Positions 1,474 to 55,945 of a stretch of 64,000 nucleotides of DNA are shown one piece after another. The translations under genes and the position numbers were made by a program. Location of the stretch: the IMG/VR virus record IMGVR_UViG_3300045988_165047. The stretch is one strand, 5' to 3'. Position 1 is the stretch's first letter. Every line of letters starts with the position of its first letter. Source of the DNA: a virus. Under the pieces are notes generated by a model. That model had not been told where the DNA came from, did not search any database, and was given only the letters and a program-made list of their open reading frames with translations.

Positions 1474-3138
1474 TTAGTATGAACTTCTTCTAATAGTGTT
1501 TATTTCGTCAATAACTCCAGCGTAGAGGGGGTTATCAAGGACTTCCATTTCTTCCTCAACCTCTCCACCGACTTCTCTTGAGGCGGCTAGACTCATAAGT
1601 GCCGCACTATCCACGAAGTCGTCAAAGTACCCATCCGCCTTCTGACACACGAGGTAAGGTCCGTTAAAGAACTTGGTGCAGTTCAGCATCTGTTCCTCAA
1701 ACTTCTGATACTCCGTTGTAGCTCTGACGCTAGGGTTTGCTGGAACAATAAGTCGTCTAGTCTGAATATCAGATATGAAGTTAAACCACATATCTGACTT
1801 ACTCTGCGTTGTGAAGGTGTAAGGAACAATGTCCACATACTCACCACAAGCGTAAGAAAGTCGGTCTACTACTGCTCTACCTACCCCCGTATAGTCTGCA
1901 AAGATAACAGATATATTGTACTCTATGATAGCGTCCATTATGATATGGTGTTGCGTCTCATAGTCCGCTGTACCGAGAGCTAGCCACGCAAGTATCTGTT
2001 TGTAGGGCTTACCGAATGGGTCTTCCTCATCATTCCATACTTTCGCTATCGTTAAGACTGTCTCAGCAGGAGATTTTGCAATATCAAGCCCAGCCACGAC
2101 AAAGTCATTAACTCTGGGTTCTTGTAGCCCCAGCTTTCTATTGATGATACGAGCATACTCCTTATCGGTAAGAAGCATACCGCTCTCAACGTCCCATATC
2201 AGAGCAAAAGCAAGGCGGAAGGCTTGGGAGTCTTCTCCCCATCGGTCTCTCTTACGGAGAATGTCCGCTTCATAGTTAAGGTGAAAGCGTTTCCCGTCTA
2301 TGGAGAACTGCTTCCTTCGGTCCTTTATGATGTCCTTGTAGTTGTACTCATAGTGTTTGCGTGTTAGAGGGTTCTTACTCTTAGCGTCCTCCTTTCGGTT
2401 GTTCACAATCTCGTAGTAGAAGTGGTTCTTGGTTGTACCCGTAGTTCCCACCTTAACAAGAGTACCTGCCGTAGAAGAAAGCATAGGCTCAATAGACTTA
2501 CTCACAATAAGGTCATCTACGTCCTGCGCTTCTTCAACTATTACAAGGTCATACGTCTTTGATTCAATCTTACTCTGCTTACTCGCTACCTGTCCTGCAA
2601 GGAAAGACCCATTAGTAAGCACGAGTTTAGCGGAGCTATCAAGCCCTACATCAATATCGGGGTCGTCCATAACCATTTCAGCGTTGGCAGACCTAAGACG
2701 GCTAAGCGCACGGGAGTACGTAGTAACCACCTGGTCAGACTGCGGAGCAAACAACCCTACACGGAAACCATCCTTGAACTGCTCCAAGTCTGGAATGAAC
2801 TTAGCAAGAGCTGGTAATAGTACTACGAGGGTGTCAATAACGAACGCCATAGCCTCCGATTTACCACTCTGTCGGGAGAGAAGGACGGTCTTAACGTCCC
2901 CCGAGAAGGTAATTACGGAGTGAATAATCCCATAGGCGATAGCCTCTTGGTAGTCATACAGACTAATACCCGTGAGTATCTTCCCAAACTCCATTATCTT
3001 GTTGGTGACATCGTGGGCATCAAAGGACACCTCTTTGGATATAACGGACAGGTCTATATCGTCAATACTTCCTCCTGTCGCAGGGAACACATATCCCTCG
3101 TCTGCTACCTTAGTTTGATTTTTCTTCTTTTTAGACAT
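1474..3138 (-). CDS. terL: Terminase large subunit (TerL)
   Basis: ORF 1474..3150 trimmed to the ATG at 3136-3138 (MSKKKKNQ). Walker A-like LLSRQSGKSEAM, Walker B-like DLVIVEEAQD, and a C-terminal nuclease-like half (GLDIAKS, FADYTGVG). The portal lies directly downstream. Confidence 0.9.
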   Translation of the reverse strand: MSKKKKNQTKVADEGYVFPATGGSIDDIDLSVISKEVSFDAHDVTNKIMEFGKILTGISLYDYQEAIAYGIIHSVITFSGDVKTVLLSRQSGKSEAMAFVIDTLVVLLPALAKFIPDLEQFKDGFRVGLFAPQSDQVVTTYSRALSRLRSANAEMVMDDPDIDVGLDSSAKLVLTNGSFLAGQVASKQSKIESKTYDLVIVEEAQDVDDLIVSKSIEPMLSSTAGTLVKVGTTGTTKNHFYYEIVNNRKEDAKSKNPLTRKHYEYNYKDIIKDRRKQFSIDGKRFHLNYEADILRKRDRWGEDSQAFRLAFALIWDVESGMLLTDKEYARIINRKLGLQEPRVNDFVVAGLDIAKSPAETVLTIAKVWNDEEDPFGKPYKQILAWLALGTADYETQHHIIMDAIIEYNISVIFADYTGVGRAVVDRLSYACGEYVDIVPYTFTTQSKSDMWFNFISDIQTRRLIVPANPSVRATTEYQKFEEQMLNCTKFFNGPYLVCQKADGYFDDFVDSAALMSLAASREVGGEVEEEMEVLDNPLYAGVIDEINTIRRSSY

Positions 3139-3172
3139 AAAAATACCCAAGAGGCTTGTTGCCCCTTGGGTA
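3139..3172 (-). terminator. Stem-loop plus U-run abutting the TerL start codon
   Basis: On the minus strand this reads TACCCAAGGGGCAACAAGCCTCTTGGGTA followed by TTTTT and then ATG. The stem is 8 bp (3144-3151 / 3165-3172). Confidence 0.55.
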
Positions 3173-4342: not shown

Positions 4343-4870
4343 TTATTTATTAGAATAATTCATAGTTCCCTTGTCAAGCCTCCACTCTTGGAGTCTCTTC
4401 AAAAACTCTTCGGTCATCTTGTACACTGGTGGTTCCGAGGTGTCCACCCAGCAGTTGGGAGTCTCATAGAGTCTGATGTTCTCAAGAGTTAGCAACTTCT
4501 CAGATTTCATCAACTCCTTAATGATGACAAACAGCTCGGCGCTGATATTTTCAGCGGTCGGGTTGCAGTACCCCTCATTACCGAGACCCATAGGGAATAA
4601 CCTCCACCCCTCTTTCTTACACATATCAATTAACCCCGTGTCTTCTGGGTTAAAGATACCTGCGTGGTCCAAATGCTCGTCAATCCACTGACAAGCGATG
4701 CGCTTGATTTCCTTGAAGTCAATAGCGTACCCGATTTCCTCGGTCTGTTCAAAGGAGAACGTTATCTCCACCTTGAACCTATGCCCGTGAAGGTTGTAGC
4801 ACTTGACCCTCTCATTCATCACTCTGTGAGCCGCATCAAACTCACAAATTCTAGTTATCGTCTGTCTCAT
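4343..4870 (-). CDS. queD: 6-carboxy-5,6,7,8-tetrahydropterin synthase (QueD / PTPS family)
   Basis: ICEFDAAHRVMNERVKCYNLHGHRFKVEITF carries the Cys-x3-His-Gly-His PTPS/QueD signature. The start is trimmed to the internal ATG (MRQTITR) that abuts the stop of the upstream ORF. Confidence 0.85.
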   Translation of the reverse strand: MRQTITRICEFDAAHRVMNERVKCYNLHGHRFKVEITFSFEQTEEIGYAIDFKEIKRIACQWIDEHLDHAGIFNPEDTGLIDMCKKEGWRLFPMGLGNEGYCNPTAENISAELFVIIKELMKSEKLLTLENIRLYETPNCWVDTSEPPVYKMTEEFLKRLQEWRLDKGTMNYSNK

Positions 4871-4871
4871 T

Positions 4872-5102
4872 TTAAGGATGCTTCTTAGTTGTTCTTTTGT
4901 AGGGGAACACGTCTCGGATATTGTGAGAGAAGTACGTCCCCTTACTTTCGGAGCGAAGAAACTCACCCCACACTCTGAGAGATACACCGCTATACGTGTA
5001 CACCCACGTGGGTCTGTTTATGAACACCATAGTCAGCTTTAGTGTACGTCTATCGTACTCGGCTGATTTTATGTTGGAAGAGTTTACTAACATAGTCTGC
5101 AC
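4872..5102 (-). CDS. KTSC-domain-like small protein
   Basis: 76 aa. The pattern SSNIKSAEYDRRTLKLTMVF...WVYTYSGVSLRVWGEFLRSESKGTYFSHNIR resembles the KTSC domain. Confidence 0.55.
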   Translation of the reverse strand: MQTMLVNSSNIKSAEYDRRTLKLTMVFINRPTWVYTYSGVSLRVWGEFLRSESKGTYFSHNIRDVFPYKRTTKKHP

Positions 5103-5864: not shown

Positions 5865-7151
5865 TTAGAGCTTAATCCACTTGTGGAACTTGGTAAGTCC
5901 GTACCCACCTGAGATTTCAATACCCTCGCTGGTGTCCTTGACTTTGGTGGTGCGCCACTCATCGTTAGCCATATCGTAGAACAGAATCTTGTCACCGACA
6001 TTAAGGCTCTCATCAAAGAGTATATCCTGTGGGGCAACTACTCCGAGTGCTTCAGCGAAGGCACTAAGGAGCTGTGCGTTTTCAGCCGTGTTGGGGAGAG
6101 CCTTATTAGAGTACTCAATGTAGGGGTCTACATATATGGGGTCCTCAAGGAGTTCCAGCTTCGTGCACATTCCCTTTGCGTAGCGCATAAGTTGTGGCAT
6201 ACCTTTTGGCTCGTAGTGTAGTATATAGTCCGTCATAAAGGGGACGGCATCAATGAGACCTCCATCTACTTCTAGCTTATCACCGAGGAGTCGTCCGATG
6301 GTCTTAAATCCTGGGAGAACTGCTCCCTTGAACTTAACCTTCTTTTGTGTGACCACTACGAACTCCATTTCTTCTGTCATCGTGCGAAGCTCCTTTAAGA
6401 ACTTTGCGTAGCGAATTTCCTTGTTCGCCCATTGGCGGAGTAGAGCCTTAGCTCGTCTGTTCCACTTGCGGAAAGGTATCATACCTACGAACTCTGCTGG
6501 GTCAAACTTAGGTTCTACCTTTTCCAAGATGCGGTCAATCTGACGGATAACCTTCTTGCGCAGGTTTTCATAGTCCACCTCTTCCTGCTCTTCGGGGAGG
6601 TCCTCTGCCTTCTTAGTCAAACTCTTCCCGAGTTCGTATGCGGCTGAGAGTTCCTCTGGTGTGTGGGAACGCTTAGAGCTTTTCTTCTCAAACCAATCAC
6701 CCAATTCTTTCGGAGTAGGGATGCCCTCCATTTCAGTATCTACCACAGCGTATCTATTATAGGTATCTTCTACGAGGAAACCATTTTCGCTGGTGCAGGA
6801 GATACGATAACCACGGAAATGTAGCTTGCCCTTTTTGATAGGAGCGTCCTCGTTGTTGAAGCGGTCTTTGAGGTATCTCTGATAGGTGGTCATACTCATT
6901 TCCAGCACGCTGATGTCCTCGGGTATCTCGTCAAAGGAATTCACGATACGGCTTACTTTACGGCAGGTTCTCTTTACAGGGTCTACGATGTAGTCCTCCC
7001 CTTTGGTGCTACGAGCGTACTCATACGTAGGCTCTTCTTCGCTTGTGGTTTTGCGTGGCTTAGTCACCTTGGGAGCTTTTACTTTCACTGGGGCAAAGGC
7101 TTCATCAAACCATTGCTGTACTTCTTGTGGGGCTGTTGCTTGAGTATTCAT
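5865..7151 (-). CDS. Hypothetical protein (428 aa)
   Basis: Long uninterrupted ORF. No motif recognised. Confidence 0.75.
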   Translation of the reverse strand: MNTQATAPQEVQQWFDEAFAPVKVKAPKVTKPRKTTSEEEPTYEYARSTKGEDYIVDPVKRTCRKVSRIVNSFDEIPEDISVLEMSMTTYQRYLKDRFNNEDAPIKKGKLHFRGYRISCTSENGFLVEDTYNRYAVVDTEMEGIPTPKELGDWFEKKSSKRSHTPEELSAAYELGKSLTKKAEDLPEEQEEVDYENLRKKVIRQIDRILEKVEPKFDPAEFVGMIPFRKWNRRAKALLRQWANKEIRYAKFLKELRTMTEEMEFVVVTQKKVKFKGAVLPGFKTIGRLLGDKLEVDGGLIDAVPFMTDYILHYEPKGMPQLMRYAKGMCTKLELLEDPIYVDPYIEYSNKALPNTAENAQLLSAFAEALGVVAPQDILFDESLNVGDKILFYDMANDEWRTTKVKDTSEGIEISGGYGLTKFHKWIKL

Positions 7152-7595: not shown

Positions 7596-8363
7596 TTATC
7601 GCTTTTTGGGTTGAAGTTGTCTTAGTTCTTCTAGGTAGTCCCACAGAGCAGAGTCTATGTAGCTTACCTTGCAAACACTGGGGGTATTATTGAGGTGTTC
7701 GCTAACGTAGGTAGCTACCTCTTTAACCTCTTCACGACGCTGTTTTTTGGTCGTTGGAAGTTCCCTTTCAAGGATGTCCTTTACAGCATCCCACGCTACG
7801 ATGTTTGCCCGTAGCGTTCTAAAGTCTTTTGGGGTAAACGTGTTACCCACGTACTTCTTGACAAACTTAGTAAGTTCATACGCCGTTATGTCAAAGATAG
7901 TTTCCGCTTCATAACCATTAAGAAGCGCACGAACCTGCTTAGAGAGCGTTTTGTCTAGTTTGAAGGAGTTTTCAACCTGCTTCTTTCCAAGAAAGTGCAG
8001 GTATACAACACCACGTTTTACCTCCACGTGCTCACGAAGGAGCGTAGTAAGCCCATACGTTTGTACAAACTCAGGTTCTTTAGAGCTGTTTGGGTGTGGC
8101 TGAGTAACATAGCCCTCAGAGCTACCTTCGTTACCTATACGGATACCCGTGTACATCATCAGTTTGCACGCTAGTGCGAGTCTTGCGGTGTCAGAAGTGT
8201 TCCGACCACGCTCAATCATCCCATCAAACTTCTCAGAAAGCTCGTCAAAGCGATAGGCTAGCTTGACGGAGCGGTTAAATTTGTCCGTATTTCTCCCCTT
8301 TAGGGAGCGGAAAAACTTATACTCCTCCCCACACAGCTCTATAATCGTAATTGTTTTAGCCAT
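7596..8363 (-). CDS. Type IB DNA topoisomerase (poxvirus/bacterial TopIB type)
   Basis: Ordered TopIB catalytic motifs are present: TGIRIGNEG, LHFLGKKQV, TPKDFRTLRAN and LNNTPSVCKVSYID. The last carries the active-site Tyr in an SY(I/V) context. Confidence 0.8.
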   Translation of the reverse strand: MAKTITIIELCGEEYKFFRSLKGRNTDKFNRSVKLAYRFDELSEKFDGMIERGRNTSDTARLALACKLMMYTGIRIGNEGSSEGYVTQPHPNSSKEPEFVQTYGLTTLLREHVEVKRGVVYLHFLGKKQVENSFKLDKTLSKQVRALLNGYEAETIFDITAYELTKFVKKYVGNTFTPKDFRTLRANIVAWDAVKDILERELPTTKKQRREEVKEVATYVSEHLNNTPSVCKVSYIDSALWDYLEELRQLQPKKR

Positions 8364-8774: not shown

Positions 8775-9470
8775 CTACCGCTTTTTGAGGGGGTAGAAAT
8801 TAGAGAAAGAGAATAGGAAGAGGTCATTTTCAAGAGCAGAGCCCTTTTTGAGCTTGAAATTCTCAAAGTCACCATTAAACGTGGCTAACTTTTTCAGCTC
8901 TTTAAGAGTCTTCTTATCAAGTGCACTCTCATACTTAGAGTACTCAAGATTGAAATTCACCGACATACCGCCTCGCCACCATACGTTGTCTTTAGCGTGG
9001 TTAGCGTATTGATACGCCGACACCCAGTTGGCTGCACGGAGGAGAGCTTCGGTTTCGGGGTCCTCTTGAGCGGTTGCACGCTTCTTGTCACGCAAACGAT
9101 AATACAGCGTATTATCAAGCTTTTCAAGTAACGTTTTAGCATCATCGCTGAGGTAGCAGTCGTTGTCCCAATAGCCTCGTTCTCTCAAGTGTATCATTTC
9201 AAAGGACTTCGTAATGGAGTCCATGACTTTGTAACCATTGAGACCGAGTTCCTTTAGGGTACTTCTTACCTTAGTGAGTAAAGCCTTGAGTGACTCGTCT
9301 GGAGTTTCCTTTTTGGGGACACTCTTAGTTACGAATGTCACAGGCTTTTCTAGAAGGTTGTAGCGTTCCTTTGGGAAATTTCCCTTGTTCTTCTCCACAC
9401 GGATGCAGAACATTAAGGTAGTTAGCGTCTCGTGGACACCGACAAACACTCTTACGTCTTCTGTACGCAT
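8775..9470 (-). CDS. Tandem paralog A (unknown function)
   Basis: 231 aa, clearly homologous to 9592..10254 (VFVGVHE..LMFCIRVEK...LRAANWV). A TATATTTG box lies 5 nt before the ATG. Confidence 0.75.
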   Translation of the reverse strand: MRTEDVRVFVGVHETLTTLMFCIRVEKNKGNFPKERYNLLEKPVTFVTKSVPKKETPDESLKALLTKVRSTLKELGLNGYKVMDSITKSFEMIHLRERGYWDNDCYLSDDAKTLLEKLDNTLYYRLRDKKRATAQEDPETEALLRAANWVSAYQYANHAKDNVWWRGGMSVNFNLEYSKYESALDKKTLKELKKLATFNGDFENFKLKKGSALENDLFLFSFSNFYPLKKR

Positions 9471-9591: not shown

Positions 9592-10254
9592 CTACTCCTT
9601 TTCAAGAAGATAGCTGTTTAAGGATGAAAATAGGTAAAAATCATCGTGCAGGCGTGATTTTGGCTTAAGTTTGAAAGAAGAGAAATCTTTTTCAAACGTA
9701 GCCATCGTTTTCAGCTCAGCAAGGAGAGCTTCATCAAGTTCCTTGCGTCGCTTAGCGAGTTTTTGCTCAGACAGCCCCATTGCCCCCTCTTCAGAGAGAC
9801 ACTGATGCTGTTTAGCATAAACCCAATTAGCCGCACGTAGAATGGCGTCAGCCCCTGGGTCCTCGGATGCGTACTCCAACTCATGCTCGTCAATATACGT
9901 AGATAACGCATAACGGAGCTTTTCAAATAGAGAAGCCCCTTTACCATTATAAGCATACGCATCAGGTCTTCCTAGGTCGTACAGAGAGCCATAGATTTCA
10001 TAATCTACGTCTTCTGTGCTGTACCCCTCCAAACCAAGTTCTTTTAGGGTATTTTGTACCTCGGAAAACATGAGCCTGAGCGTTGGGAGGTCATCCTCCA
10101 GCCTAGGGATGGTCTTAGTGACGGATGCGATGGGCTTTTCCTTGAGGTTATAATACTCCTCTGGGAAACGGAACTTCTCCACACGAATGTGGAACATTAG
10201 TCCCTCATGCACCTCGTGGGCACTAAGGAACACCTTTACATTTTTGGTACTCAT
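9592..10254 (-). CDS. Tandem paralog B (unknown function)
   Basis: 220 aa, homologous to 8775..9470. A TATAATTG box lies 4 nt before the ATG. Confidence 0.75.
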   Translation of the reverse strand: MSTKNVKVFLSAHEVHEGLMFHIRVEKFRFPEEYYNLKEKPIASVTKTIPRLEDDLPTLRLMFSEVQNTLKELGLEGYSTEDVDYEIYGSLYDLGRPDAYAYNGKGASLFEKLRYALSTYIDEHELEYASEDPGADAILRAANWVYAKQHQCLSEEGAMGLSEQKLAKRRKELDEALLAELKTMATFEKDFSSFKLKPKSRLHDDFYLFSSLNSYLLEKE

Positions 10255-10327
10255 AATTCAATTATATTTAGGTTAGTATTTACTACGCTAAATCGTGTAA
10301 GCCGCTTGCTTATCACCAGTGGAGGGC

Positions 10328-10343
10328 GTTACACACGTGTAAC
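10328..10343 (-). promoter_or_regulatory. Palindromic element GTTACACACGTGTAAC in the leader of paralog B
   Basis: 7-bp arms. It shares its core with the 9541-9578 palindrome. Confidence 0.4.
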
Positions 10344-10418
10344 ATTTACCACTACATTGACCATCATAACCACTACTTCTGTCACTTAGTCGTTATTGGT
10401 TGGTCATTGATTACATTA

Positions 10419-10449
10419 CAAAGATAGTAACTTTTATTGAACTAACAAA
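10419..10449 (-). promoter_or_regulatory. Near-consensus Bacteroidota promoter TTTG-N19-TATCTTTG
   Basis: The minus strand reads TGTTTGTTAGTTCAATAAAAGTTACTATCTTTG. It is the first promoter-like element leaving the gene-free region and points at paralog B. Confidence 0.6.
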
Positions 10450-10531
10450 CATTTTAGGGCGTTTGGGTGAAACTTTTTTATAAGTAGTTAGTTTATAAGC
10501 ACTTACAAGTAGAAAATTTTTTCATCAGCAA

Positions 10532-10607
10532 GGGCAAACGGGGTACATACGGGCAAAAGTAGGGGCAAAGCAAGGGGTAAAACGGGGCGTTTTGGGGGCG
10601 TTTGGGG
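10532..10607 (+). repeat. Eight phased G3-5 tracts (about 10.3-nt period)
   Basis: G-tract starts at 10532, 10540, 10551, 10562, 10574, 10584, 10594 and 10604, separated by A/T-rich spacers. Confidence 0.8.
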
Positions 10608-10697
10608 CGTTAGGCACGTTGCACCACGGGGCATATTTATACGTAGGCACACACGTATGCACACGCACGAGGGAGCAGCGTTGTACACTTACATAGT

Positions 10698-10798
10698 ACA
10701 CCACCACACGAACGAACCACCACACCACCATATCAAGACACCACACCACAGAAGCACACCACGACACCACCATACCATACCACCACTATACCACCACA
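10698..10798 (+). repeat. About 100-nt CA-rich low-complexity tract (CCACC/ACACC words)
   Basis: caccaccacacgaacgaaccaccacaccacc...ataccaccacaat. The track ORFs that overlap it translate to low-complexity sequence. Confidence 0.8.
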
Positions 10799-10881
10799 AT
10801 AGTACGCACATATACACTAACTAAAAATGTCCATGTTTCTAATTTCTATTTTCTAATATAAGCGGACTACCGCTGAGTAAC

Positions 10882-10908
10882 TTCAATTCATCCCCCTCTT
10901 TAAGGGGG
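10882..10908 (-). promoter_or_regulatory. Stem-loop followed by TGAATTGAA (partial copy of a conserved leader element)
   Basis: The minus strand reads CCCCCTTAAAGAGGGGG-ATGAATTGAAG. Compare 28072-28105 and 53995-54028. Confidence 0.35.
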
Positions 10909-11340
10909 TGGGGAGCAACCACTAGCACAAGGGTGCCATAATTCTGGGCATTCTTTGCCACGCACCCCAGGGTCTCCCTCCATAAAAACACCCACACGGG
11001 GGTACCTTTGGCGTTTTCGTTTACTTTTCATCCGTTACCTATATGGTATTATGTATGTTCTTACTCTTATAATAGTATTATAGGTGCTTATTAAGCGTTT
11101 CACCGCCGAAATTTTTCCTTTCTATGCCACGCAGTGTGCTCCATCAGCATATATTATATACTTATACTATGATATTACGCTTACCTAACTACATTTTCAT
11201 ATTGCGCCCAATGATTTCCCAGCGCTTTTACCGCTTTTATGCCACAAACGCTATTACCTAAGTTAGTTTTCAGATGAATTGCATACATATACTACTTACC
11301 TACTACTATAATTCAGCTCTTATACTACTATTATATAGCT

Positions 11341-11375
11341 CTAACTACATAAATAAGTGTGCTAACTACATAAAT
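11341..11375 (+). repeat. Direct repeat CTAACTACATAAAT x2, 21-nt spacing
   Basis: Copies at 11341-11354 and 11362-11375. Confidence 0.8.
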
Positions 11376-11414
11376 GAGCATCTAATTTCAGTTTTACTCC
11401 GCAATTCTAGTTGC

Positions 11415-11447
11415 AAAACTACTCTACCTACAAGTAAAACTACTCTA
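11415..11447 (+). repeat. Direct repeat AAAACTACTCTA x2, 21-nt spacing
   Basis: Copies at 11415-11426 and 11436-11447. Confidence 0.8.
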
Positions 11448-11637
11448 TGCGCCCAAAAATTAGAATGCGCTTTGTAGTTTACGAGCATCTTGAGCTAAAA
11501 TTAGTAGTGTATCTACGTGTAATAGTAGTTACCTAATTAGAAAATTAGATTTCTGAGCAGAAAAATCATTCTAATCTGCGTGTAAATTAGAATGCACCAA
11601 GAAAAATTAGAAGAAATCTAGTTCAAGACCGCAGTTC

Positions 11638-11664
11638 TATATAATATATATAATATATTATATA
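11638..11664. other. 27-nt A/T-only tract (possible DNA unwinding element)
   Basis: tatataatatatataatatattatata, embedded among the 8-mer repeats. Confidence 0.5.
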
Positions 11665-11897
11665 GTTTTCTCCGCCAAATTGCAAACACAACTTCTAATT
11701 TCAAATTACGCACGCTAATTTCAAATTGCGCCTTGTAGTTTTTAGACGCACAAGCTAATTTTTGGGAGCAAATTCTAATTTCCGCAGTAGTTTTTAGTTG
11801 CTGTTTCTAATTTCAGTACGTAATTCTTATTGTAGTTATACTCTAACTAGAAAACTACGCATCTAATTTCAAATTAGAATTGCACATACAAATTACG

Positions 11898-12065
11898 CTA
11901 GTTTTTCTGCGTTGAAAACTAGAATTAGAACGCTAGAAACTAAGTTACTCTAATTAGAAACTAAATTAACCTAGTTACTAACTAAAATTAGAACGCCGAA
12001 ATCTAAAATTACGCAGTTAGAAACTAAAATAACGCCTCTAAAAACTAAATTAGCGCCGATTACAA
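11898..12065 (+). repeat. Eight tandem degenerate 21-bp units (iteron-like)
   Basis: Units start at 11898, 11919, 11940, 11961, 11982, 12003, 12024 and 12045. Each begins CTA(A/G). Examples: ctagaattagaacgctagaaa, ctaaaattagaacgccgaaat, ctaaaattacgcagttagaaa. Confidence 0.8.
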
Positions 12066-12314
12066 TGAAAACCCATTCAGAAAAAGTACCTCTAATTTCG
12101 TAACTACCTGATAATGGGGTGTTTGACCCCCTATAAAAACGACACTTTGATACACAAAAACCACCTAAAAACTACCTAAAAACGCTATAAAATGCAGTTA
12201 CTCTAATTTCTAATTACTTACACGTATATACCTATATAGTAATAAGCAAACCCTTCGCAAACCCAGTGGCTACGGGCTTTTCGCTATGCCAAAACCCAAA
12301 GGGCTTACCCACAC

Positions 12315-12389
12315 ACATAGTTACATACACTTTGTTTCGCCTATGTACATAGTTACACACGTATATAAATACCCACGTACATAGTTACA
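12315..12389 (+). repeat. Direct repeat ACATAGTTACA x3, 32-nt spacing
   Basis: Copies at 12315-12325, 12347-12357 and 12379-12389. Confidence 0.8.
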
Positions 12390-12640
12390 TATAGATAAAC
12401 ACGCATTTAAGGCCGCGAATCTGTTTCCTTTTCAGCACCGCTTTCTGCGTATTACAACCACAACCGCCGATTTTGTTATTGTTCTATTGGTTGCACACAG
12501 CTACCTTATACAGATGTTATACTATTACTACCTAGATATAGAGTAGATTTTGCGCCCTTTTGTTACCCTTACCGCCTATAAGCAGTTTTACCCGCCAAAA
12601 TTTTACCCGCAACAAATTGAATTTCTAGGTTGCATATACC

Positions 12641-12665
12641 AAAAACGAAAGGGAGCCTGTCTCCC
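12641..12665 (-). terminator. Rho-independent-type terminator
   Basis: The minus strand reads GGGAG-ACAGG-CTCCC followed by TTTCGTTTTT. It lies about 95 nt after the stop at 12760 and closes the long upstream operon. Confidence 0.6.
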
Positions 12666-12759
12666 GACAAACTCCCTTCCTACTACTAATACTAACCCAT
12701 TATAGGCAGGTTCATCACTCCTACCTATGAGTTTACCACAAAGATTTTATGTGGTATTT

Positions 12760-16434: not shown

Positions 16435-16718
16435 TGTCGTATGATTTCTTTTAAGTAGATGGTGTCCCCTCCCACACTAACAGCGGTGGATAGTGCTTTT
16501 AGCAGGACCTCCATCACGAGGGTTTTTTCAGTAGATGATGATGGCCTTTGAATGTTGTTGCACCCAAAGGCGTAATGTGGTGTAGTGACCTTTGCGAACA
16601 TCCTCCAGCAGGTGTCTTGCTTAACACCCCTAACGGATATGCCTATGGTAGCGTTGCTCCTTTCAAAGAGGAACTCCCCAGCACCCAAGGTGTTGAGGAG
16701 TACCACTACGTCCATCAT
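16422..16718 (-). CDS. Hypothetical protein
   Basis: 98 aa, tiled. Confidence 0.5.
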   Translation of the reverse strand: MMDVVVLLNTLGAGEFLFERSNATIGISVRGVKQDTCWRMFAKVTTPHYAFGCNNIQRPSSSTEKTLVMEVLLKALSTAVSVGGDTIYLKEIIRQWSQ

Positions 16719-17383
16719 ATTTTGATAGCTTGTAAGAACTCAGCCCTAAGAGGTCCATTAAAGAATACCCCACCGAGCTTAGAGGTTAGTGTATCACCGC
16801 CCTCGTCTTCCTTACCTCTGAAACTAACACAGAAATGTTCCGCCTTGATGACAACGGCAACATTCTCAGTCTCTAAGAGATAACTAAGCGTGTGGTAAAT
16901 CTGCTCTACTAAGCGTTCTTGTACCTGGGGTCTTCGGCAAAAGAACTCCACAACCCTATTAAGTTTAGAGAGTCCAATTACCTTCCCCTCGGGAATGTAC
17001 GCTACATAAGCCTGACCACGAATGGGCATCCAATGATGCTCACACATAGACTTCACACTGATGCCTCTCTCAAGTACCATACTACCATACTCCATAGAGT
17101 TACCGATGGTCATAATCTTGGGGAAGTTTTTGTAGTCCAATCCCCAAAATAATTCAGAGTGATACATCTTAGCCAATCGGCGAGGTGTCTCCATAAGAGA
17201 CTCATCTGTTAGGTCCAGACCAAGATTATGGTGCAGTAGGCTGAACAGCTTTTCAGTGTCTTCTCGTAGAGTATCCTCCTCCTTAATAAGGCGCACCATA
17301 GGTGTCTCCACTCCCATAGACTTTAAGTGTTCGTGAACCTCTCTACCTAATGCAAGGTCGGTTTTGTTTTTGTCTAATGCCAT
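16715..17383 (-). CDS. folE: GTP cyclohydrolase I (FolE)
   Basis: SMCEHHWMPIRGQAYVAYIP and RRPQVQERLVEQI are canonical FolE motifs. 222 aa. Confidence 0.9.
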   Translation of the reverse strand: MALDKNKTDLALGREVHEHLKSMGVETPMVRLIKEEDTLREDTEKLFSLLHHNLGLDLTDESLMETPRRLAKMYHSELFWGLDYKNFPKIMTIGNSMEYGSMVLERGISVKSMCEHHWMPIRGQAYVAYIPEGKVIGLSKLNRVVEFFCRRPQVQERLVEQIYHTLSYLLETENVAVVIKAEHFCVSFRGKEDEGGDTLTSKLGGVFFNGPLRAEFLQAIKI

Positions 17384-19684: not shown

Positions 19685-20164
19685 TTAAACCAAATTCTCG
19701 TACTTGCTCCAATCAATGGACGCTCTAGCCTGCCACCATTTCTGATAGACCCCCTCCACAAACTTTAGTGTGGTGAGGTAGAACTCCGTGAACTCCTCAA
19801 GCGTTGTAAACTCGTGGAATTGTGGTTCCGTATCTGTACCAAACTTGATAGTCGTAGGAAGGCTTTTACCTTGGGTCTGATAGGCGATGTCGTAGAGGAC
19901 CTTGTAGTTCAGTTTATCTTCGTTAGTGAGGTTCACAAACAACCCCTTCCACTCAAAACCCCGAAGGACCTCATCGTCCGTCATCGTCTTATACCAATCA
20001 ACCACCACTGCCTTTATCTGGTCAATGGTAGGTTTATAAGGGAGCACCGCTTGAATTAAGTCGTTTCCGAATACCCAAGAAAGTATCCACTCACCTTTTA
20101 CCTCGTTATAAGGAAGTAGAGAGGGGGTTGCCCCCTCTACTCCTTTAGTTACTAAGTATTCCAT
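19685..20164 (-). CDS. Fibre-associated protein (possible DUF4376-like chaperone)
   Basis: 159 aa, immediately after the giant fibre gene. DWYKTMTDDEVLRGFEWKGLFVNLTNEDKLNY resembles DUF4376. The function is inferred from position. Confidence 0.45.
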   Translation of the reverse strand: MEYLVTKGVEGATPSLLPYNEVKGEWILSWVFGNDLIQAVLPYKPTIDQIKAVVVDWYKTMTDDEVLRGFEWKGLFVNLTNEDKLNYKVLYDIAYQTQGKSLPTTIKFGTDTEPQFHEFTTLEEFTEFYLTTLKFVEGVYQKWWQARASIDWSKYENLV

Positions 20165-23100
20165 TATAAGAAATCTGTTATGTTAATGAACTCCTGTACA
20201 CTCTTCACCTCACGGATTTCTCCAGTGAACATAGGTCTTACCGCTTGTTCGGTGTTGGAGCTTTCTAGGATTTCAAACCATATTAAGCCTTTATCGTGGT
20301 GTCTATGTCCTATATAAATAGGAGAATCTGTATCTCCAACGCTCCAAATCTTGGAACCTGTGGTATAGAACGTAGAATTAGAACCACCTGAGAATTGATA
20401 TGGTGTAAGACCTATGATGTCCATGTACTTTTCGTGTCTAACTCTAAGTATGTTGGTCTCGTGGTTACGAACAAACCTCCATAAAGTGGTTTCTCCATTC
20501 TCTCTGCGAGCCTTGAAAATGGGGGCATCGCCATTCATGGACACCGAACTTCCTGTAAGAGCACCCCACCAGCCAGAGTCGAAGTACTCGTACCCCATCG
20601 TCTTTAGGGCTTGCTGACCTACCCATTCTCGGGATATACCACTAACCTTCCAGAAACCCCAATCTCCTGATGTACCATTCTTACGGACGTTATCTGACAT
20701 ACCACTTTCAAGGCATCTTCCCATAAAGTGTGCCCAATTACTCTCGCTCGTAAGTGACCCATGGTCCCAGCTCGTTATTGAACCGTCCCTCACATACTTC
20801 AAGTTTACTATATTCTTGTACTCCTCATAGGATATTATTTCCATACCCCTACTCGTCATAAGTGTCTCAAAGCTCTCCCTGTTTCTACCCGTAACGTGTC
20901 TATTAGACTGAATAAAATCCTTGAGAACTCCCGAGCCTATCTTCCCATTGACAGAGCATAGTTTGAAAGCCCCTACAAGTTTCGCCTTATGGCGAACCCA
21001 ATCAGTCTCTACATCTACTATATTACTCGTATTAGACACTACGGCGTATATGTCGGGAGAAGTCGCCCTAGGTGCCTGATTAGGTATGGAGAAGTAACAC
21101 CATTCTGCCCCATCTGGGATGTCAAGTACTACATACATTCCCTCTTCAAAGTACGAAGAATTGGTAGAAGGGGAGTAGGACTCTACAACCCCCCCATCTT
21201 CTCTTACTATGATTACACCTTCAGCGTTGCCAGATGTTGGAACCCTTACCTTCTTACCTCCTCGTACTTTAACCCTATAAGCTACTCTTGACGTGTCTTG
21301 AACTATGGAGTTTTTAGTAGTGCTTCCGGCCACTACCTTTTGGTTCACAAGCTCATTACCGCTACTACGAAGTTCTTCAAGAGTGAATTTAGTCGCATCT
21401 GGAGCGTCTGGTTTTACCCCGTACGCATAGCAGAAGTACTTCTTCATACTCTTTACGTCATTTACCCCCTTGTACCAATACTCTGGCTCATATATCATCA
21501 GGTCTCCCTGTGAAAGGTCTACCGCCGCATCGGTACAATTACTCTGTATCTCGTTGTCGTCATACTTCAAGAAGGTATCTTTTCTAAGACGGCAGATACT
21601 CATAACCCCCTTAGACTTTCGCTCCTGCTTAGCTAAACAAGGGAAGCGAGCGTTAAGGATAGCCGCAATATGCGCAGAGGGCTTATAGGCATTACCGAAC
21701 TTATACCCCGTCTTGTTGTCAAGGTTGGAGAGCTTAGCTGGAGTTGCCACCGCATCGTCAAGCTCAACAACTGTGTACTGAGGCTGACGAATGTTAAGCT
21801 CATCAAAGCGTTCTCTGTACTTCTCAAACACAGCTTCGTCAAGGTACTTAGTGAGCTGGTAATTACCTAGGAGCTTACACTTAGAAACGTTCTCCGTTCC
21901 ATCAGCGTTGATACCTCCAAGACCCTTAGCATACCAAGCCTCAAGTTCAGACCCGTCACCCGTAATAGAGCCGATATTGATACGGACATACTTCAAGGAG
22001 TTATTACCCGAAAGTATTTCCTTGAGGAGGTCCGTCCCCGATAGCTTGGGGCAATTTTCAACTCTAAGACCAACAAGGCGACTAACGTCCCCAAATACAA
22101 TACCCGCTCTCGTGATGTTTGGTAACGACACAAGAGACAGAGTCTGGTAGTTATTAGGGAGTTTCACCACCTTGACAGCGGAACTTTCTCCAAAGAGAAT
22201 AGACGAAAGAGAGTTACACCCACGTGCATCAACCTCTTCAAGTCTAGAGCACCCTGTTAAGCTAAGTGAAGGAAGGTTCTCATACCCATTAAGAGCGAGC
22301 TTTCTGAGCATAGGCAGGTTATCTCTAATGGCGAACTCTGTCAGACCATAGGACTTTCCTTCCTTACCCATAATCAGTTCCTCAAGAACGGGCATATTGG
22401 GGATGTCCAAATTCGTGAAGCCACCCCAATCAGAGAGGTCAAGTTTCGTTATCCACTGCCCACCATATAGATGGAAGATGGTACCGATATTAGCCACCTG
22501 AGTGTAGCGGTACACGAACTCTTCTCCCTTCTGTACCTTCTTATGAACCATAGAGGTTCCCTCTCTCTTGAACTCAAGATAGAAGTCTCTACCCGTTACG
22601 GCACGAATAGTAGCACCTGCTTCGGAGTTACCCTTCCAAGCGATGTCCGTTGCAGTGTACTGACCCGTAGCCGCCCAAGCATCAAACAGAGCCATTCGGT
22701 TATAGATGAACCACTCTCTGTGCGACTTTCTGTTCCCCTGCATACTTTCAAGGTAGGAGTACGTCTGCGTAGTAACTCTCCCGTCACGGATAACAGAGAC
22801 ACCCTTAGTCTTGGGGTCAATGTACTTTCTAAGAGAGTCCACATTGAATACTCGCTCACAGAAACGCTCACTCTGTTCGTCATTAAACATACGAAGGATG
22901 TCCGCATTAGAGAGTTTTGCTCTGATACGGAGATATGCCTTCTTGATTTCATCGGGGAACTGCTCACGCAGGTTCTTCCACAGAACACTATCGTGCCCAG
23001 CGAAAGCATAGACGGTCTTTCCTCCTACGGACAGCTCTGTGTCAATAGTCTCCTCGTTAATGTCCCAATGATAACGAAGTCTCCCGTCATTTCGGACACC

Positions 23101-26100
23101 TAGGATAGTATCGTTATCATAGAAAATCATATAGGCGAGTACCTTGTCACGCTTAGGCTCGTAGAAGAAACTCATCATCATATTCTTCACACGCTGGTCA
23201 CAGCAAGCGAACATATCCGTGAACACATAGTAGTCACAGAGGTAGTCTATATCAAAGTAGTCACCAAGCTCTCTCTTAAACTTAGTTTTTCTCTGAGTAA
23301 TTGCACTTGCAGAAAGCCCACTAGCGAGAGTGTCCGTAGAGTGTACCCACTTGACAAGAGGCTCAAGATACTTAGGTTTCAGCGTCCCATCAGCATACTT
23401 AGCGTTTATCCCCTTGTCATCGGGGAAGCGTGCTTCAAACACCTTCATCCAATTAGGAGTACCATCAGATGCCTTAGCGTCAAAGTCAGAGTCCTTAAAG
23501 CTACCCATTGGGTAGTCGTTATTAAGGAACTCCCAACATTCAGTAGGGTTCTTACCGCCAAACTTAGTCGTTACCCAAGTAGCATCGTGGTATCCAGGAA
23601 TACCTAAGAACCCGAAGACATCCTCGGTGCTCTTGTCGTTGTTAAAGTTGAACTTCCCTAGGAACTTAGGAGTCTCATCTACTGAACCACGATAGAAGAG
23701 CAAGCAAGGCTCTCCGTCCACGGTGGTACGCACATCCTTATCGTAGCGTTTTCTATCTACGTGCTTCTGAGGAGGAGTAAGTTCCCCTGCCTTAATGAGA
23801 GTGTTGTGGACAAGGCGAGCCATCCCCGTATTATGGGAGCTGGAGCTTTCAGCAAAGTCCGCTTTAAGACAGAAGCAATTTACGTCTGCACCAGCAGGCA
23901 TACCATCCTTAGCAATTCGGAACGTCCACTTACCACTTTCTCTGAGAGTACCACCTGCACCATTCTCATCACAACCTACAAACAACTGCCCCAACTTTTT
24001 CTCCTTAGAGCTATCGTAGGTGTAGATGCGGTAGTTCTTAGTGGGGTAAGCAAGAGACGAAGTTCCTTGAAGAGCTATACTCCCACCAATAAGACGGAAG
24101 TTCTGTTCGGGGACACCACCCTTCACAAAGGTGAAAATCTCAGATACGTCAAACTTCGTCTTCTTGTTATTATTCACTGCCGCATAAAGAGCGGTAGGCA
24201 TCCCACTTGAGTGAGTGCCTGTAATGATTACAACACGAAGTCCAGCAGGAGCACTTTCAACGCTAATGTCCCCTTCGGAGTTAAGGACATCATTCTGCTT
24301 GTACTCTGCGATAAGGTCGTCCACCTTGGGCTGACCAAGAATGTACAAGGAGAGTACCTGGTCATCAGTTAGGAACGTATTGTACGCTCTAATAGAATTA
24401 ACATCTATCGTAGCCTTCGTTGAACCTATCTTAATAGGCATAGGAGTGGCTTGATAGACACTATCAGTAGGACCTCTCTGCACCCCTGCGCACATTACCC
24501 CATTGATATAGAGGTAAACCATTTCAGAGTTATTCTTCTCGTACTCTGAAGACTCTGACTTACTTTGTGGGAACGACACAAACGTAACCTCGTAGGGAAC
24601 GTCTGAAGCCATCTTCATAGCGAGTTTGCTATTACCGCTCGTGATTAGCCTAGCTTCACTAGGAGTGATTTCAAACCCCGTTCCTCTAGAGTCTACGCAA
24701 GACACAACTACTGCATCGTGGTCTACTACCTCACTACACTTGTATCTGATAGAGAACGCAAACGCATTAGTTGTTGGGAGTACCTGCTGAAGAGGCTTGT
24801 AGTTTACTACTGATATAGCGTCCCCCTTGTGACGGAGTGCTCCGTTAATCCAACCATCACCACCAAAGTTGAAGCCTCTAAAGTCAGTAGTTACTCCGTT
24901 GTACGTCCAAGAGTCTCTCTTAACATCAGAGTTGCTTCTACCTTGTGCGGATAAGTGTAGCTTCAAACCATCGGTGGGTTCCGTAAGGTTAAGGTCCGTC
25001 TTACCTACCTGTAAGGTATAGGTGTACGTGGTATCGCCACAAGCAATTTTGCAGGAGCGTTCCCCTTCCCTATTACTACGTAACTGAAGCTCATTGTCCA
25101 CGAAGGAAACCTTAGCAGAAGCAACTACCTCGTCACCCTCATATACCGCAACAGCCGTTGGAGTCTCAAGAGGGTTGTACACAGCATAGCTTAACGTATA
25201 GGTGTCAAACTGCTTAGTGACCAATTCAGGTCTCTGTCCAGCGGTGTAAACTCTCCCGTCCGCATAGTCAAAACGGGTACAAACAATAGGTCTGTTAATA
25301 CCCTTAGTGACTACGGCTACATCAAAGTAGATGCTGTTTGACTTAATAGTCCCACCGCCTAGAACTTCAAGCTCCGCAACTAATTGTACAGAGTTAGAGC
25401 CGTGAGACATTCTGCTTGTGTCAATCGTAAACGCCCCGTTAGCCGAGGATGCGGTAATAGTTCTGTCTTCGGTGGGTGCGCCATTGACGTAGCAACGAAG
25501 AACCTTACTACCACTACCCGACAAAGCATAGGGAATGGACAAGGACTGACCTCTCTCCGTGAGAGTGGAGATAGAGTATGAGCTGGTAAGTTTCAGCTGA
25601 ATTACATTCACCGTCCACGAAGCCGAAGCAACCTGTCTATCACTACCCGAGCCAACCTCTAAGCGCACTCGGATATTATTAGCACCGACACCCACAAACT
25701 TAGTAGCGTCAATCTTCTGTGTGCTCCCAGCAGGTACGTTTGATTCAAAAGAGTACGAAGTAGCCCCTCTAGTAATAGTTACGACAGCCTTAGCAGGGTT
25801 ACCCGTAGTGTCCTTGGTCTCCGTATTGATTTGGTCATAGGAGTAGACAAGTGCAACCTCATCCCCAGCCTTTACATTAAGGTTGGGAGTTACACGAGTA
25901 AGGACAATCTTGGTTGCACTTTGAGAACCTCCACCGCCACCTGTGATGGGACCTTCGGTAGAGATTTCTTCCCCAAGCATATTGTTCACTACAATTCGGT
26001 AGACCTTATCAGCGCCTTCCCCTTCTTCCTCAACCTTGATACCACCAACGGCTTCCTTCTTGAGCTGTTGGATAGCGGAATGAACCGCCCCACTCTGAAC

Positions 26101-37134: not shown

Positions 37135-37248
37135 AAGATTTCTAAGCTAGTATTTAGGTAGGGTGGTTGGAGTTGCACCAACACAGCCTATTGGCACCCA
37201 CTTTAAGTAGGCTCGCTTACTACGTGCGCCACACCCTACACATTAGGC

Positions 37249-37315
37249 AACCCCATAGAGGACTTGAACCTCAATCTTTCCCGTCGGACTGCTCTAGCCA
37301 TTGAGCTAATGGGGG
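37249..37315 (-). other. Degenerate tRNA-like sequence (too short for a canonical tRNA)
   Basis: The minus strand has a good D-arm (GCTC-AATGGCTA-GAGC) and T-arm (GAGG-TTCAAGT-CCTC) and an acceptor stem CCCCCAT/ATGGGGT. Only about 16 nt lie where the anticodon arm and variable loop should be. Confidence 0.3.
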
Positions 37316-37479
37316 TAACGTAGGTACTTAGGAATTTGTTCGGTAACCTACTTGGTTGAGTATTAAAGTGACCCGAGTACTAACATATAGCTAATACAAT
37401 CTCAACACCGACTATCTACTTAACCCTCCTATGGGTCGTAGACCAGCAACCTTTAATAGGAATTATGTTGCATATTTTG

Positions 37480-37552
37480 TCACCTCAGCAGGACTTGAAC
37501 CTGCGACCCACGGGTTAAAAGCCCGTTGCTCTACCGACTGAGCTATAAGGTG
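37480..37552 (-). tRNA. tRNA-Lys: tRNA-Lys (anticodon UUU)
   Basis: Hand-folded cloverleaf. Acceptor CACCTTA/TGAGGTG, D-arm GCTC-AGTCGGTA-GAGC, anticodon arm ACGGG-CTTTTAA-CCCGT, T-arm GCAGG-TTCAAGT-CCTGC. No encoded CCA. Confidence 0.85.
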
Positions 37553-37650
37553 AAGTGGTGGTTTGAATTTTGACCCAACTCCTCCCAACCACCAAAGAGG
37601 AAGGTCCTACCAACTTAGCTTGATAGTGCTTGGCGACTGACAACCGCTCG

Positions 37651-37724
37651 TTTAGGAGGTGGGACTCGAACCCACGACCGATAGCTTAGAAGGCTATTGC
37701 TCTATCCAACTGAGCTACTCCTAA
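37651..37724 (-). tRNA. tRNA-Arg: tRNA-Arg (anticodon UCU)
   Basis: Hand-folded cloverleaf. Acceptor TTAGGAG/CTCCTAA, D-arm GCTC-AGTTGGATA-GAGC, anticodon arm ATAGC-CTTCTAA-GCTAT, T-arm GTGGG-TTCGAGT-CCCAC. No encoded CCA. Confidence 0.85.
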
Positions 37725-55643: not shown

Positions 55644-55673
55644 CTTGCAGTTAGTTTAGTTTTTGTTCTCCCT

Positions 55674-55720
55674 CACGCGCACGCGCGCTTTATATATTAT
55701 ATATATATATTATTATAATA
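55674..55720. repeat. Alternating pyrimidine-purine tract followed by a 32-nt A/T-only tract
   Basis: cacgcgcacgcgcgc (55674-55688), then tttatatattatatatatatattattataata (55689-55720). Confidence 0.7.
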
Positions 55721-55739
55721 CTATAAGACTATTCTAAAT

Positions 55740-55934: not shown

Positions 55935-55945
55935 TCGTCCTAGAA

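Follow-up and report, generated by a model that had tools for sequence, protein, structure and literature searches.

The question raised by this locus is why a virus should leave about 2.5 kb of its DNA without genes. The window, i.e., the whole 64-kb stretch of IMG/VR record IMGVR_UViG_3300045988_165047 analyzed here, derives from an uncharacterised virulent myovirus-like phage of the gut/oral Bacteroides type. Its nearest isolate is Bacteroides phage BS162P1, of which our literature search found no mention. All genes of the window phage lie on the minus strand and transcription runs in one direction. These include myovirus-like structural genes (sheath, baseplate, and tape measure) and replication genes encoding a DnaB-type helicase, a DnaC/DnaA-like AAA+ loader, a primase, a family A DNA polymerase, and RecA; neither a phage RNA polymerase nor a small terminase was identified in the window phage. 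The family comprises dozens of 76–91 kb contigs and is common across human metagenomes, with one isolate known. An earlier note on this DNA had described positions 10255–12759 (hereafter the gap) as a gene-free, motif-dense mosaic and proposed an origin, a genome terminus, or a regulatory hub.

The gene-free and mosaic character of the gap was borne out. It contains only low-complexity ORFs of at most 82 aa, its three sense frames hold 205 stop codons, and no long sense-strand ORF emerges when TAG, TGA, or TAA is read through in turn; independent gene callers also left it empty. No protein or nucleotide similarity to the genes of relatives was detected, and searches of phage collections in near and distant modes gave no nucleotide match. 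Ten of the 15 tandem-repeat rows of the window fall within the gap, and its repeats occur almost nowhere else in the 64 kb. A gene-free gap of 1–2.5 kb occurs at the same position, upstream of the conserved topoisomerase IB gene, in every relative examined, and its core is kept across lineages whose proteins are only 50–67% identical. Strain-variable genes lie on both sides, and the genes flanking the gap gave no family matches. Position, core, and promoter are all conserved among related phages, and the gap is a real cis-acting non-coding mosaic rather than the decayed coding segment that the earlier note had named as a refuting outcome.

Read in the sense direction, the gap opens with an intrinsic terminator (12637..12680, minus strand). 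A terminator scan recovered this element, already marked in the earlier note, as a 15-bp stem with a 4-nt loop (12680–12647) followed by a T-run; it closes the upstream gene string and is 100% identical in the strains L006 and L019. There follows an upstream unique segment (12400..12636, minus strand) with five sense-oriented, A/T-flanked KGCGG motifs and short blocks common to distant relatives, i.e., 22 nt at 12432–12411 with BS162P1 and 38 nt at 12497–12460 with L013. The whole gap holds 10 forward and 0 reverse copies of KGCGG, and eight lineages together hold 64 forward and 5 reverse copies, where about 20 forward would be expected. The next block contains three strain-specific copies of TGTAACTATGT with 32-nt spacing (12315..12389, minus strand), where the ACATAGTTACA triplet of the earlier note is indeed present at 12315, 12347, and 12379. 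These TGTAACTATGT copies resemble the AACTAT part of the family promoter without its TTTG, and the block is replaced in strains that are 91–96% identical elsewhere (47–54% identity here). The phased A-tracts that had been claimed are five in number, spaced by 21, 11, 11, and 11 nt, and lie at 12135..12192 on neither strand in particular; they are predicted to bend the DNA intrinsically and adjoin a GGGGT-N5-ACCCC hairpin. The segment around them (12215–12054) is 94–99% identical among strains.

The middle of the gap is occupied by arrays of the motif WATTAGAW (AATTAGAA / TTCTAATT), which run in both orientations through 11380..12215. Of the array of eight 21-nt units that had been described, seven clear head-to-tail units stand at 11914–12060 with 66–74% matches, and the eighth is weak. 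The claim of 14 motif copies held: 14 of the 15 exact copies of AAATTAGA in the window fall at 10838–12209, compared with 3.3 expected in the whole 64 kb. With one mismatch allowed, AATTAGAA matches 32 times in the gap and 43 times in the other 61 kb. An argument that proteins bound to these repeats would line up on one face of the helix survives for the 21-nt array and the three 32-nt-spaced copies, but not for the motif hexamers overall, which show a resultant of 0.12 at the 10.5-nt period and a 7-nt periodicity instead.

Motif blocks on the two sides of an A/T-only element are inverted relative to each other. This element is a 29-bp near-palindrome (11637..11665, three mismatched positions) that includes the previously reported 27 nt of pure A/T (11638–11664), and it is a candidate DNA-unwinding element. 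Among all 30-mers of the 64 kb it ranks as second least stable, and it is one of only two A/T-only tracts of at least 15 nt. The other, at 55689–55720, is family-conserved and closely follows a promoter-like -7 box where the replication module begins.

The arrays vary greatly among relatives. They expand, contract, and flip even between strains that are 91–97% identical: those of L006 and L018 carry 285 extra nt, L006 lacks one 21-nt unit, and L019 has large deletions. The motif core is present in at least 10 lineages, with array number, orientation, and position relative to the A/T tract differing among them, and arrays are near-absent in L011, L021, and L008. The arrays that the earlier note had stressed are the least conserved part of the gap.

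The most conserved element lies downstream and had been noted merely as a stem-loop. The stem-loop CCCCCTTAAAGAGGGGG followed by ATGAATTGAAG is present in the gap as claimed, but the element of interest is a unique two-part DNA site, CCCTTAAAGA-N24-CGGTAGT (10866..10906, minus strand). Across the family the consensus reads CC(C)TTAA(A/G)TG-N23-GGGTAGT, with a G/C-only run before it. Apart from the window, both halves were matched in 13 lineage sequences, and in these the spacer is exactly 23 nt and free in sequence. Both the window and the complete BS162P1 genome hold a single copy, and the orientation is always sense; three lineages have the site twice in tandem. A scan of all viral contigs recovered family members together with matches in unrelated contigs, which added nothing new. 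Downstream of the site is a G/T-rich, C-poor tract (10690..10829, minus strand), which contains the most G/T-rich 100 nt of the window (0.88 vs. 0.50 ± 0.06). In 10 of the 17 gap sequences that were compared, an equivalent tract follows the two-part site at a distance of 56–195 nt, mostly 100–130 nt. On the plus strand the tract is CA-rich (up to 0.90 C+A per 50 nt) rather than CA-only as had been stated, the longest pure run being 16 nt.

The downstream end carries eight phased C-runs in the sense direction (10525..10619, minus strand), seen on the plus strand as G-runs 8–12 nt apart, which are the phased G-tracts of the original description; GGGCGTTTGGG-type repeats extend from them to 10457. 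The C-runs are specific to the window lineage: the segment is only 70% identical to L019, and no equivalent was seen in the BS162P1 gap sequence. Beyond them stands a promoter, TTTG-N19-TATCTTTG (10419..10449, minus strand), with a 164-nt leader to the ATG at 10254. It matches exactly the Bacteroides form TTTG-N19-TAnnTTTG and is the sole intergenic full match to that consensus in the 64 kb. The earlier claim of a near-consensus promoter firing into the next gene stands in this form but not as a sigma-70 promoter; read that way, 10449–10419 is not near-consensus and was not listed by a sigma-70 scan. The promoter is 87–100% identical among strains, and its distance from the two-part site upstream is 445–540 nt, or 197 nt in one lineage. 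An extended form ending AACTAT(A/C)TTTG occurs within about 100 nt upstream of the downstream end of the gap in BS162P1 and L010, and 250–435 nt past that end in L008 and L011; in all four it is duplicated 2–4 kb further downstream in gene-dense DNA. We take 10419..10449 to be the main early promoter of the phage.

Order across lineages is kept only for the two-part site, the G/T tract, and the promoter. The gap has two layers, with fast-changing arrays upstream and a conserved core downstream. That the gap has a function is indicated by its family-wide occurrence, the motif core in at least 10 lineages, the invariant spacer of the two-part site, and the conserved promoter. That it acts as DNA, rather than as RNA or protein, is suggested by motifs on both strands and by the lack of an RNA family or structure and of an ORF. 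The origin, terminus, or hub proposal stands insofar as this is a real conserved cis-acting DNA region, but sequence does not separate the three options.

Our preferred reading, which we consider plausible rather than probable, is that the gap is a DNA-level cis-acting hub in which an iteron/unwinding-element origin is combined with an early promoter. The upstream gene string would stop at the intrinsic terminator and the host-type promoter at the downstream end would restart transcription. The arrays, the A-tract bend, and the A/T near-palindrome would make up the replication origin as a fast-evolving scaffold: a sequence-specific protein may coat the WATTAGAW arrays and melt the A/T tract, onto which the DnaC-like loader would then put the DnaB-type helicase. 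A conserved protein would dock on the slow-evolving core, i.e., the two-part site, G/T tract, and early promoter. We infer protein binding at these sites, melting of the A/T tract, and a start of replication in the gap from several features. An origin is to be expected given that the phage encodes a helicase, loader, primase, family A polymerase, and RecA. The seven 21-nt units, the inverted motif blocks around the A/T tract, and the phased A-tracts, all found only here, point to the gap, as does the low stability of the tract itself. Iteron origins have at least three direct repeats of 17–22 bp at whole helical turns and an adjacent A/T-rich unwinding element, to which the seven 21-nt units and 11638–11664 correspond.

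Other observations sit less well with an origin. No initiator gene lies next to the gap, and no protein near the gap or in the replication module co-varies with motif type. The sole initiator candidate, 49762–50523, lies 37 kb from the gap; its homologues are confined to the family and none is annotated, and its structure model (pLDDT 82.6) found no fold match (best Foldseek E-value 0.19). We rejected it, as it had no Pfam, PHROG, or PDB sequence match and did not co-vary with motif type. Matches to DnaA boxes are at chance level and form no cluster. GC and AT skew, followed along the window and along the complete genome of BS162P1, inflect at the gap in neither, so that no strand-composition switch marks it, an outcome that the earlier note had said would count against its proposal. 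The variability of the arrays, and their near-absence in three lineages, also speaks against an essential origin. The A/T-only tract at the head of the replication module, 55689–55720, competes with the gap as an origin site. In favor of the gap, the replication module itself showed no iteron or A/T-rich structure.

A packaging site or genome terminus (concatemer junction, cos, or direct-terminal-repeat boundary) is doubtful in itself and nearly as likely as the origin hub. Here, terminase would recognize and cut the unique two-part site. This would place the early promoter about 0.5 kb in from the left end, an arrangement known from T7, and leave the repeat arrays an accessory role in binding or bending, comparable to cosB or pacL/pacR. 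The gap occupies exactly the interval that separates the last, terminated operon of this one-directional genome from the only consensus host promoter. An asymmetric single-copy site after a G/C-only run is the best conserved element of the gap and fits a target of conserved machinery, e.g., terminase; such a unique conserved site is compatible with packaging rather than specific to it. Strand-specific features (64 vs. 5 KGCGG copies and the one-sided G/T tract) could reflect a polar process, and the strain-variable genes on both flanks recall T5- and SPO1-type genome ends, which are flanked by such genes.

Contig ends bear on the same question. Three of about 17 long contigs break inside the gap, but most cross it, and full-length contigs start at scattered positions. 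In the BS162P1 record, the break consists of a k-mer overlap of 55 nt that lies in an A/T tract. Three contigs break likewise at the A/T-only tract that the window carries outside the gap, at 55.69 kb, so these breaks look like assembly artefacts. We therefore set aside contig ends, scattered and in some cases at A/T-only tracts, as a proxy for termini. Terminase genes beside the packaging site are typical of lambda-, P22-, and SPP1-type phages, but here the large terminase gene (1474–3150) lies 6.9 kb downstream of the gap with about 14 ORFs between, and no small terminase was identified. Assigning a packaging class from the large terminase gave no information.

We consider it unlikely that the gap serves only to control and insulate transcription, with no role in replication or packaging. 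On such an account, a nucleoid-type protein of the phage or the host, bound to the arrays, would time the early promoter, and read-through into this promoter would be blocked by the terminator and by the C-rich, G-poor phased tract, the latter acting as a Rho-loading site. A conserved terminator and a conserved promoter do bracket the gap, GGGCGTTTGGG repeats abut the -33 element of the promoter, eight sense-strand C-runs about 10–12 nt apart lie upstream of it, and the arrays behave as dispensable, which suits accessory regulation. However, 2.5 kb far exceeds what is needed, given that copies of the same promoter stand 2–4 kb downstream in gene-dense DNA of relatives, and the two-part site, at 445–540 nt upstream, is too distant for ordinary promoter control.

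It is very unlikely that the two-part site is the specific target of the poxvirus-type topoisomerase IB of the family, an enzyme that all members examined but MT835482 encode downstream of the gap, at a distance between a few hundred bases and about 3 kb. If true, this would imply a site-specific nicking or strand-transfer step that starts replication or processes genome ends; we know of no such topoisomerase IB-dependent mechanism in a bacteriophage. Poxvirus-type enzymes target the pentamer (C/T)CCTT, which is read by the N-terminal domain. The two-part site contains CCCTT in most lineages, but CCGTT in L010 and CCATT in L016, and the phage protein aligns only to the catalytic domain (vaccinia residues 141–286). 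Bacterial homologues of the poxvirus-type enzyme have relaxed sequence specificity (PMC2666729).

Two further explanations are each highly improbable. In one, the gap would be a DNA-entry pause like the injection-stop of T5: a membrane-proximal protein would bind its repeat-rich untranslated DNA and hold up entry of the genome until early genes are expressed. In T5-like phages, the untranslated injection-stop (iss) region is a conserved feature; it adjoins poorly conserved ORFs and contains paired DnaA boxes within conserved inverted repeats (10.1101/866236). The replication genes of the window phage are in part T5-like, with a family A polymerase and with a helicase for which the BS162P1 homologue carries a D10-like annotation, and strain-variable genes flank its gap too; however, the paired DnaA boxes are absent from the gap and, unlike in T5, the order of repeats differs among relatives. 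In the other, the gap would encode one or more non-coding RNAs, e.g., a protein sponge with repeated GCGG or UUAGA motifs. Restriction of KGCGG and of G>C skew to the sense strand, along with several short G/C-rich hairpins, is consistent with this. Against it, the main motif lies on both strands, a strong terminator precedes the gap and no consensus promoter lies inside it, RNAalifold predicted 0 base pairs for the conserved two-part-site block, the fold z-score was -1.58, and no Rfam match was found at an E-value of 1 or below except for two chance microRNA matches outside the gap. Least probable of all is a decayed coding segment, junk DNA, or a plasmid-type partition site: pairwise comparisons with L019 (82.6% vs. 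about 91%) and L006 (about 92% vs. 96%) show lower similarity in the gap than in the coding DNA on its flanks, and its arrays resemble plasmid centromeres, but the gap has no similarity to genes of relatives, which are gene-free at that position too, its core is conserved with a fixed spacer, no relatives turned up as prophages or episomes in two scans that covered 185,579 species with one genome each, no ParA/ParB-type match occurred among the genes scanned, and plasmid collections gave no similarity in near and distant search modes.

For work on the cultured relative BS162P1, the 40-bp two-part site, the WATTAGAW motif, and the principal early promoter provide handles, and engineering of these Bacteroides phages requires that the origin and packaging site first be found. 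If the arrays are a rapidly evolving protein-binding scaffold, they would also usefully illustrate how cis-elements turn over while the core beside them stays fixed.

Comparison with known systems places the gap near several of them. Like the T5 iss, it is conserved as a feature across a phage family beside poorly conserved small genes; the T5 region lies inside a long terminal repeat, a position that for the gap would be conjectural. The T7 left end and concatemer junction combine a terminal repeat, short-repeat arrays, and the early promoters A1–A3 about 0.5 kb from the end. The window phage differs in that no phage RNA polymerase was identified, its structural genes look myovirus-like, and its contig ends give no support for a terminal repeat. 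Its genome is likewise transcribed in one direction, with at least 1 kb of gene-free mosaic between the last and first gene, short-repeat arrays, a C5/G5 hairpin beside a TAAAG-like motif, and a strong host-type promoter about 450 nt downstream of a conserved site. Herpes simplex oriS, in which an A/T-rich palindrome lies between inverted initiator boxes, has no evolutionary relationship to the gap, and its symmetric layout is missing in other lineages, e.g., L014, BS162P1, and L039; in the window lineage, AATTAGAA and TTCTAATT blocks similarly face each other across the 29-bp A/T-only near-palindrome. Finally, R6K gamma, P1 oriR, and lambda ori are iteron-type origins of plasmids and phages. 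They are 5–10 times smaller than the gap, which differs further in having no identifiable or adjacent initiator gene, DnaA boxes, or skew inflection, and in arrays that are poorly conserved and partly dispensable across the family. What the gap shares with them is head-to-tail repeats of about 21 nt, more core copies in both orientations, an adjacent A/T-only element predicted to melt easily, and predicted bent A-tract DNA, in a phage that also encodes a DnaB helicase and a DnaC-like loader.

The gene-free gap at window 10255–12759 was borne out as non-coding, and all of the motifs that the earlier note had listed for it are present, well above chance expectation. Some of their descriptions required revision. 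The 21-nt array (11914–12060) is real, with seven clear units rather than eight; the tract described as CA-only is CA-rich; and the 21-nt array fits the proposed helical phasing, which the motif taken as a whole does not. The predicted promoter (10449–10419, minus strand) is an exact match to the Bacteroides consensus TTTG-N19-TAnnTTTG, rather than sigma-70-like, and is the sole intergenic full match within the 64 kb. The 754-nt intergenic "gap" noted elsewhere is explained by three clustered tRNA genes at 37157–37724 (Leu-TAA, Lys-TTT, and Arg-TCT).

We retrieved relatives from IMG/VR and metagenomes using the topoisomerase IB gene as an anchor. Every related locus with sufficient flanking DNA contained a gene-free gap of 1.0–2.5 kb at the equivalent position. 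The comparison of repeat architecture proposed in the earlier note showed a layered plan common to the gaps, even though they cannot be aligned over their whole length; the arrays themselves vary in copy number, orientation, and position. Two layers make up the gap, an upstream one of variable arrays and a downstream core that is conserved. The observation stands, and the region is taken to be functional.

All window ORFs with matches to relatives or protein families lie on the minus strand. They encode packaging and structural proteins (large terminase, baseplate, and tape-measure proteins), replication proteins (D10-like helicase, DnaB-type helicase with DnaC-like loader, primase, family A DNA polymerase, RecA, ligase, and poxvirus-type topoisomerase IB), and nucleotide modification enzymes (GTP cyclohydrolase I and QueD). 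The closest annotated relatives are Bacteroides phage BS162P1 (88.9 kb) and the faecal contig MT835482, with 54–60% polymerase identity; the window is collinear with both in gene order, and in the BS162P1 record the gene-free region falls at both ends. Contigs from the human metagenome project PRJEB6997 encode a protein identical to that of the first post-gap gene. A search of one genome from each of 185,579 species of bacteria and archaea found no relative, so the family behaves as virulent.

Several further genes merit mention. The presence of FolE (GTP cyclohydrolase I; 16715–17383) and QueD (6-pyruvoyl-tetrahydropterin synthase; 4343–4987), with a conserved 428-aa protein nearby (5865–7151), suggests a pathway modifying the phage DNA with 7-deazaguanine. 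A giant 2546-aa ORF (20164–27804) contains a CotH kinase-like domain (residues 1503–1629); neither BS162P1 nor MT835482 has a counterpart of it. Acidic (Asp/Glu-rich) repeats make up most of a 308-aa protein (51885–52811), and a 94-aa protein (51524–51808), missing in all relatives compared, matches a PHROG "DNA binding protein" family. The large terminase ORF (1474–3150) encodes 558 aa, compared to 907 aa in BS162P1 (L002 9334–12057), where the N-terminal part weakly matches a primase family; this size difference could reflect a fusion, an intein, or gene calling. The 238-kb metagenome contig BNJU01000003.1 (loci L033 and L045) carries the gap and topoisomerase region twice, approximately 79 kb apart, so that it seems to consist of phage genomes of about this length joined head to tail as a concatemer.

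Within the upstream layer, ten or more lineages show enrichment of the WATTAGAW core, and others carry a one-base variant, ATAAGAAT; L011, L021, and L008 contain few or no such motifs. Lineages differ in the copy number, orientation, and placement of these arrays relative to the A/T tracts. In four strains that share 91–97% identity with the window, change falls mainly in the arrays: L006 and L018 contain an additional 285 nt of TCTAATT units, L006 is also short of one 21-nt unit, L019 has large deletions, and the ACATAGTTACA triplet is swapped out entirely among these strains. In pairwise comparison with L019, identity was 82.6% across the gap and approximately 91% in the flanking coding DNA. 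An A/T-flanked KGCGG motif is strongly oriented along the sense strand: over eight lineages, 64 copies are forward, where about 20 would be expected, and 5 are reverse.

The downstream core is defined by a two-part site. Its first half, CC(C)TTAA(A/G)TG, occurs in all lineages but the most distant and usually follows a G/C-only run, and often also GAGCTGAAAT. In the 13 other lineage sequences with both halves matched, GGGTAGT lies exactly 23 nt beyond it (24 nt in the window), with unconserved spacer sequence. Such constancy of spacer length with freedom of sequence looks like a two-part protein-binding DNA site. In the window, this site corresponds to what was previously described as a stem-loop with TGAATTGAA after it, and RNAalifold found no RNA structure in the conserved block. 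There is one copy in the window (10906–10866, minus strand) and one in the complete BS162P1 genome, two tandem copies occur in three lineages, and the orientation is always sense. A G/T-rich, C-poor tract lies 56–195 nt (mostly 100–130 nt) downstream in ten of the 17 gap sequences compared, and that of the window contains the highest-G/T 100 nt of the entire 64 kb. The consensus promoter follows the two-part site at 445–540 nt (197 nt in L016). An extended form of this early promoter, TTTGGTTAT...AAAGnAATAACTATATTTG, occurs twice in BS162P1 (L002), L008, L010, and L011, near the downstream end of the gap and again 2–4 kb further downstream; the window has the gap copy only.

Several features are consistent with a replication origin. 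In the window, the iteron-like array, A/T-only near-palindrome (11637–11665), and predicted bent DNA are restricted to the gap, the replication module lacks iteron-like or comparable A/T-rich structure, and the phage encodes helicase-loading machinery. Against this, the proposed skew inflection at the gap was absent from both the window and complete BS162P1, no DnaA-box cluster was found in the gap, no initiator gene adjoins it or co-varies with the motif, and the WATTAGAW arrays are dispensable in some lineages. Origins of the T7 or T4 type comprise a promoter plus an unwinding element, and a candidate rival of this type is found at a non-coding spot (55644–55945) where the replication module begins. 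Here a promoter-like -7 box (TATCTTTG at 55754) is closely followed by a 32-nt A/T-only tract (55689–55720), the least stable DNA of the window, and then alternating GCGCGCGTGCGCGTG. The spot immediately precedes the D10-like helicase gene, and in BS162P1 and MT835482 an A/T-only tract is likewise found upstream of the helicase gene.

A packaging site or genome junction would accord with the gap's position at the seam of the transcription map, its unique conserved site, its strand-specific features, and the strain-variable genes that flank it. However, contig ends are scattered, and 6.9 kb separate the gap from the large terminase gene. BS162P1 was deposited as a circular assembly opened within an A/T tract, and the ends of the record overlap by 55 nt; since three IMG/VR contigs break likewise at the other A/T tract (55.69 kb), such breaks appear to be assembly artefacts. 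Weighing the evidence for origin and terminus, we therefore tentatively read the gap as an origin-plus-early-promoter hub, and keep a packaging or junction role as a somewhat less likely alternative.

The family's short (255 aa) poxvirus-type topoisomerase IB (7596–8363), present in every relative examined except MT835482, is encoded downstream of the gap, at a distance that ranges among related loci from a few hundred bases to roughly 3 kb. CCCTT is the cleavage pentamer of the poxvirus enzyme and is read by its N-terminal domain. Its occurrence in the conserved half-site may link site and enzyme, which we regard as a lead rather than a finding. The link is weakened by the replacement of CCCTT with CCGTT or CCATT in two lineages, by the alignment of the phage enzyme to its vaccinia and Deinococcus counterparts, which is confined to their catalytic domain and leaves out the N-terminal domain, and by the relaxed, non-site-specific sequence recognition of bacterial homologues (PMC2666729). 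The first two post-gap genes (9592–10254 and 8775–9470) belong to no known family and are fast-evolving or swapped: both match one single L006 gene at 43–50% identity, which suggests that they are paralogues, and their flanking DNA is 96–100% identical to L006.

This phage family is widespread yet unstudied, and with its unique two-part site the gap is a worthwhile target for experiments. Among known systems, it most resembles iteron origins, the concatemer junction of T7, and the injection-stop region of T5; the T5 region is an untranslated maze of repeats, 1662 bp long, that has yet to be assigned a function (10.1101/866236). The gap has some of the defining features of each and lacks others; we file it as a phage non-coding cis-acting control region that belongs to no single known family.
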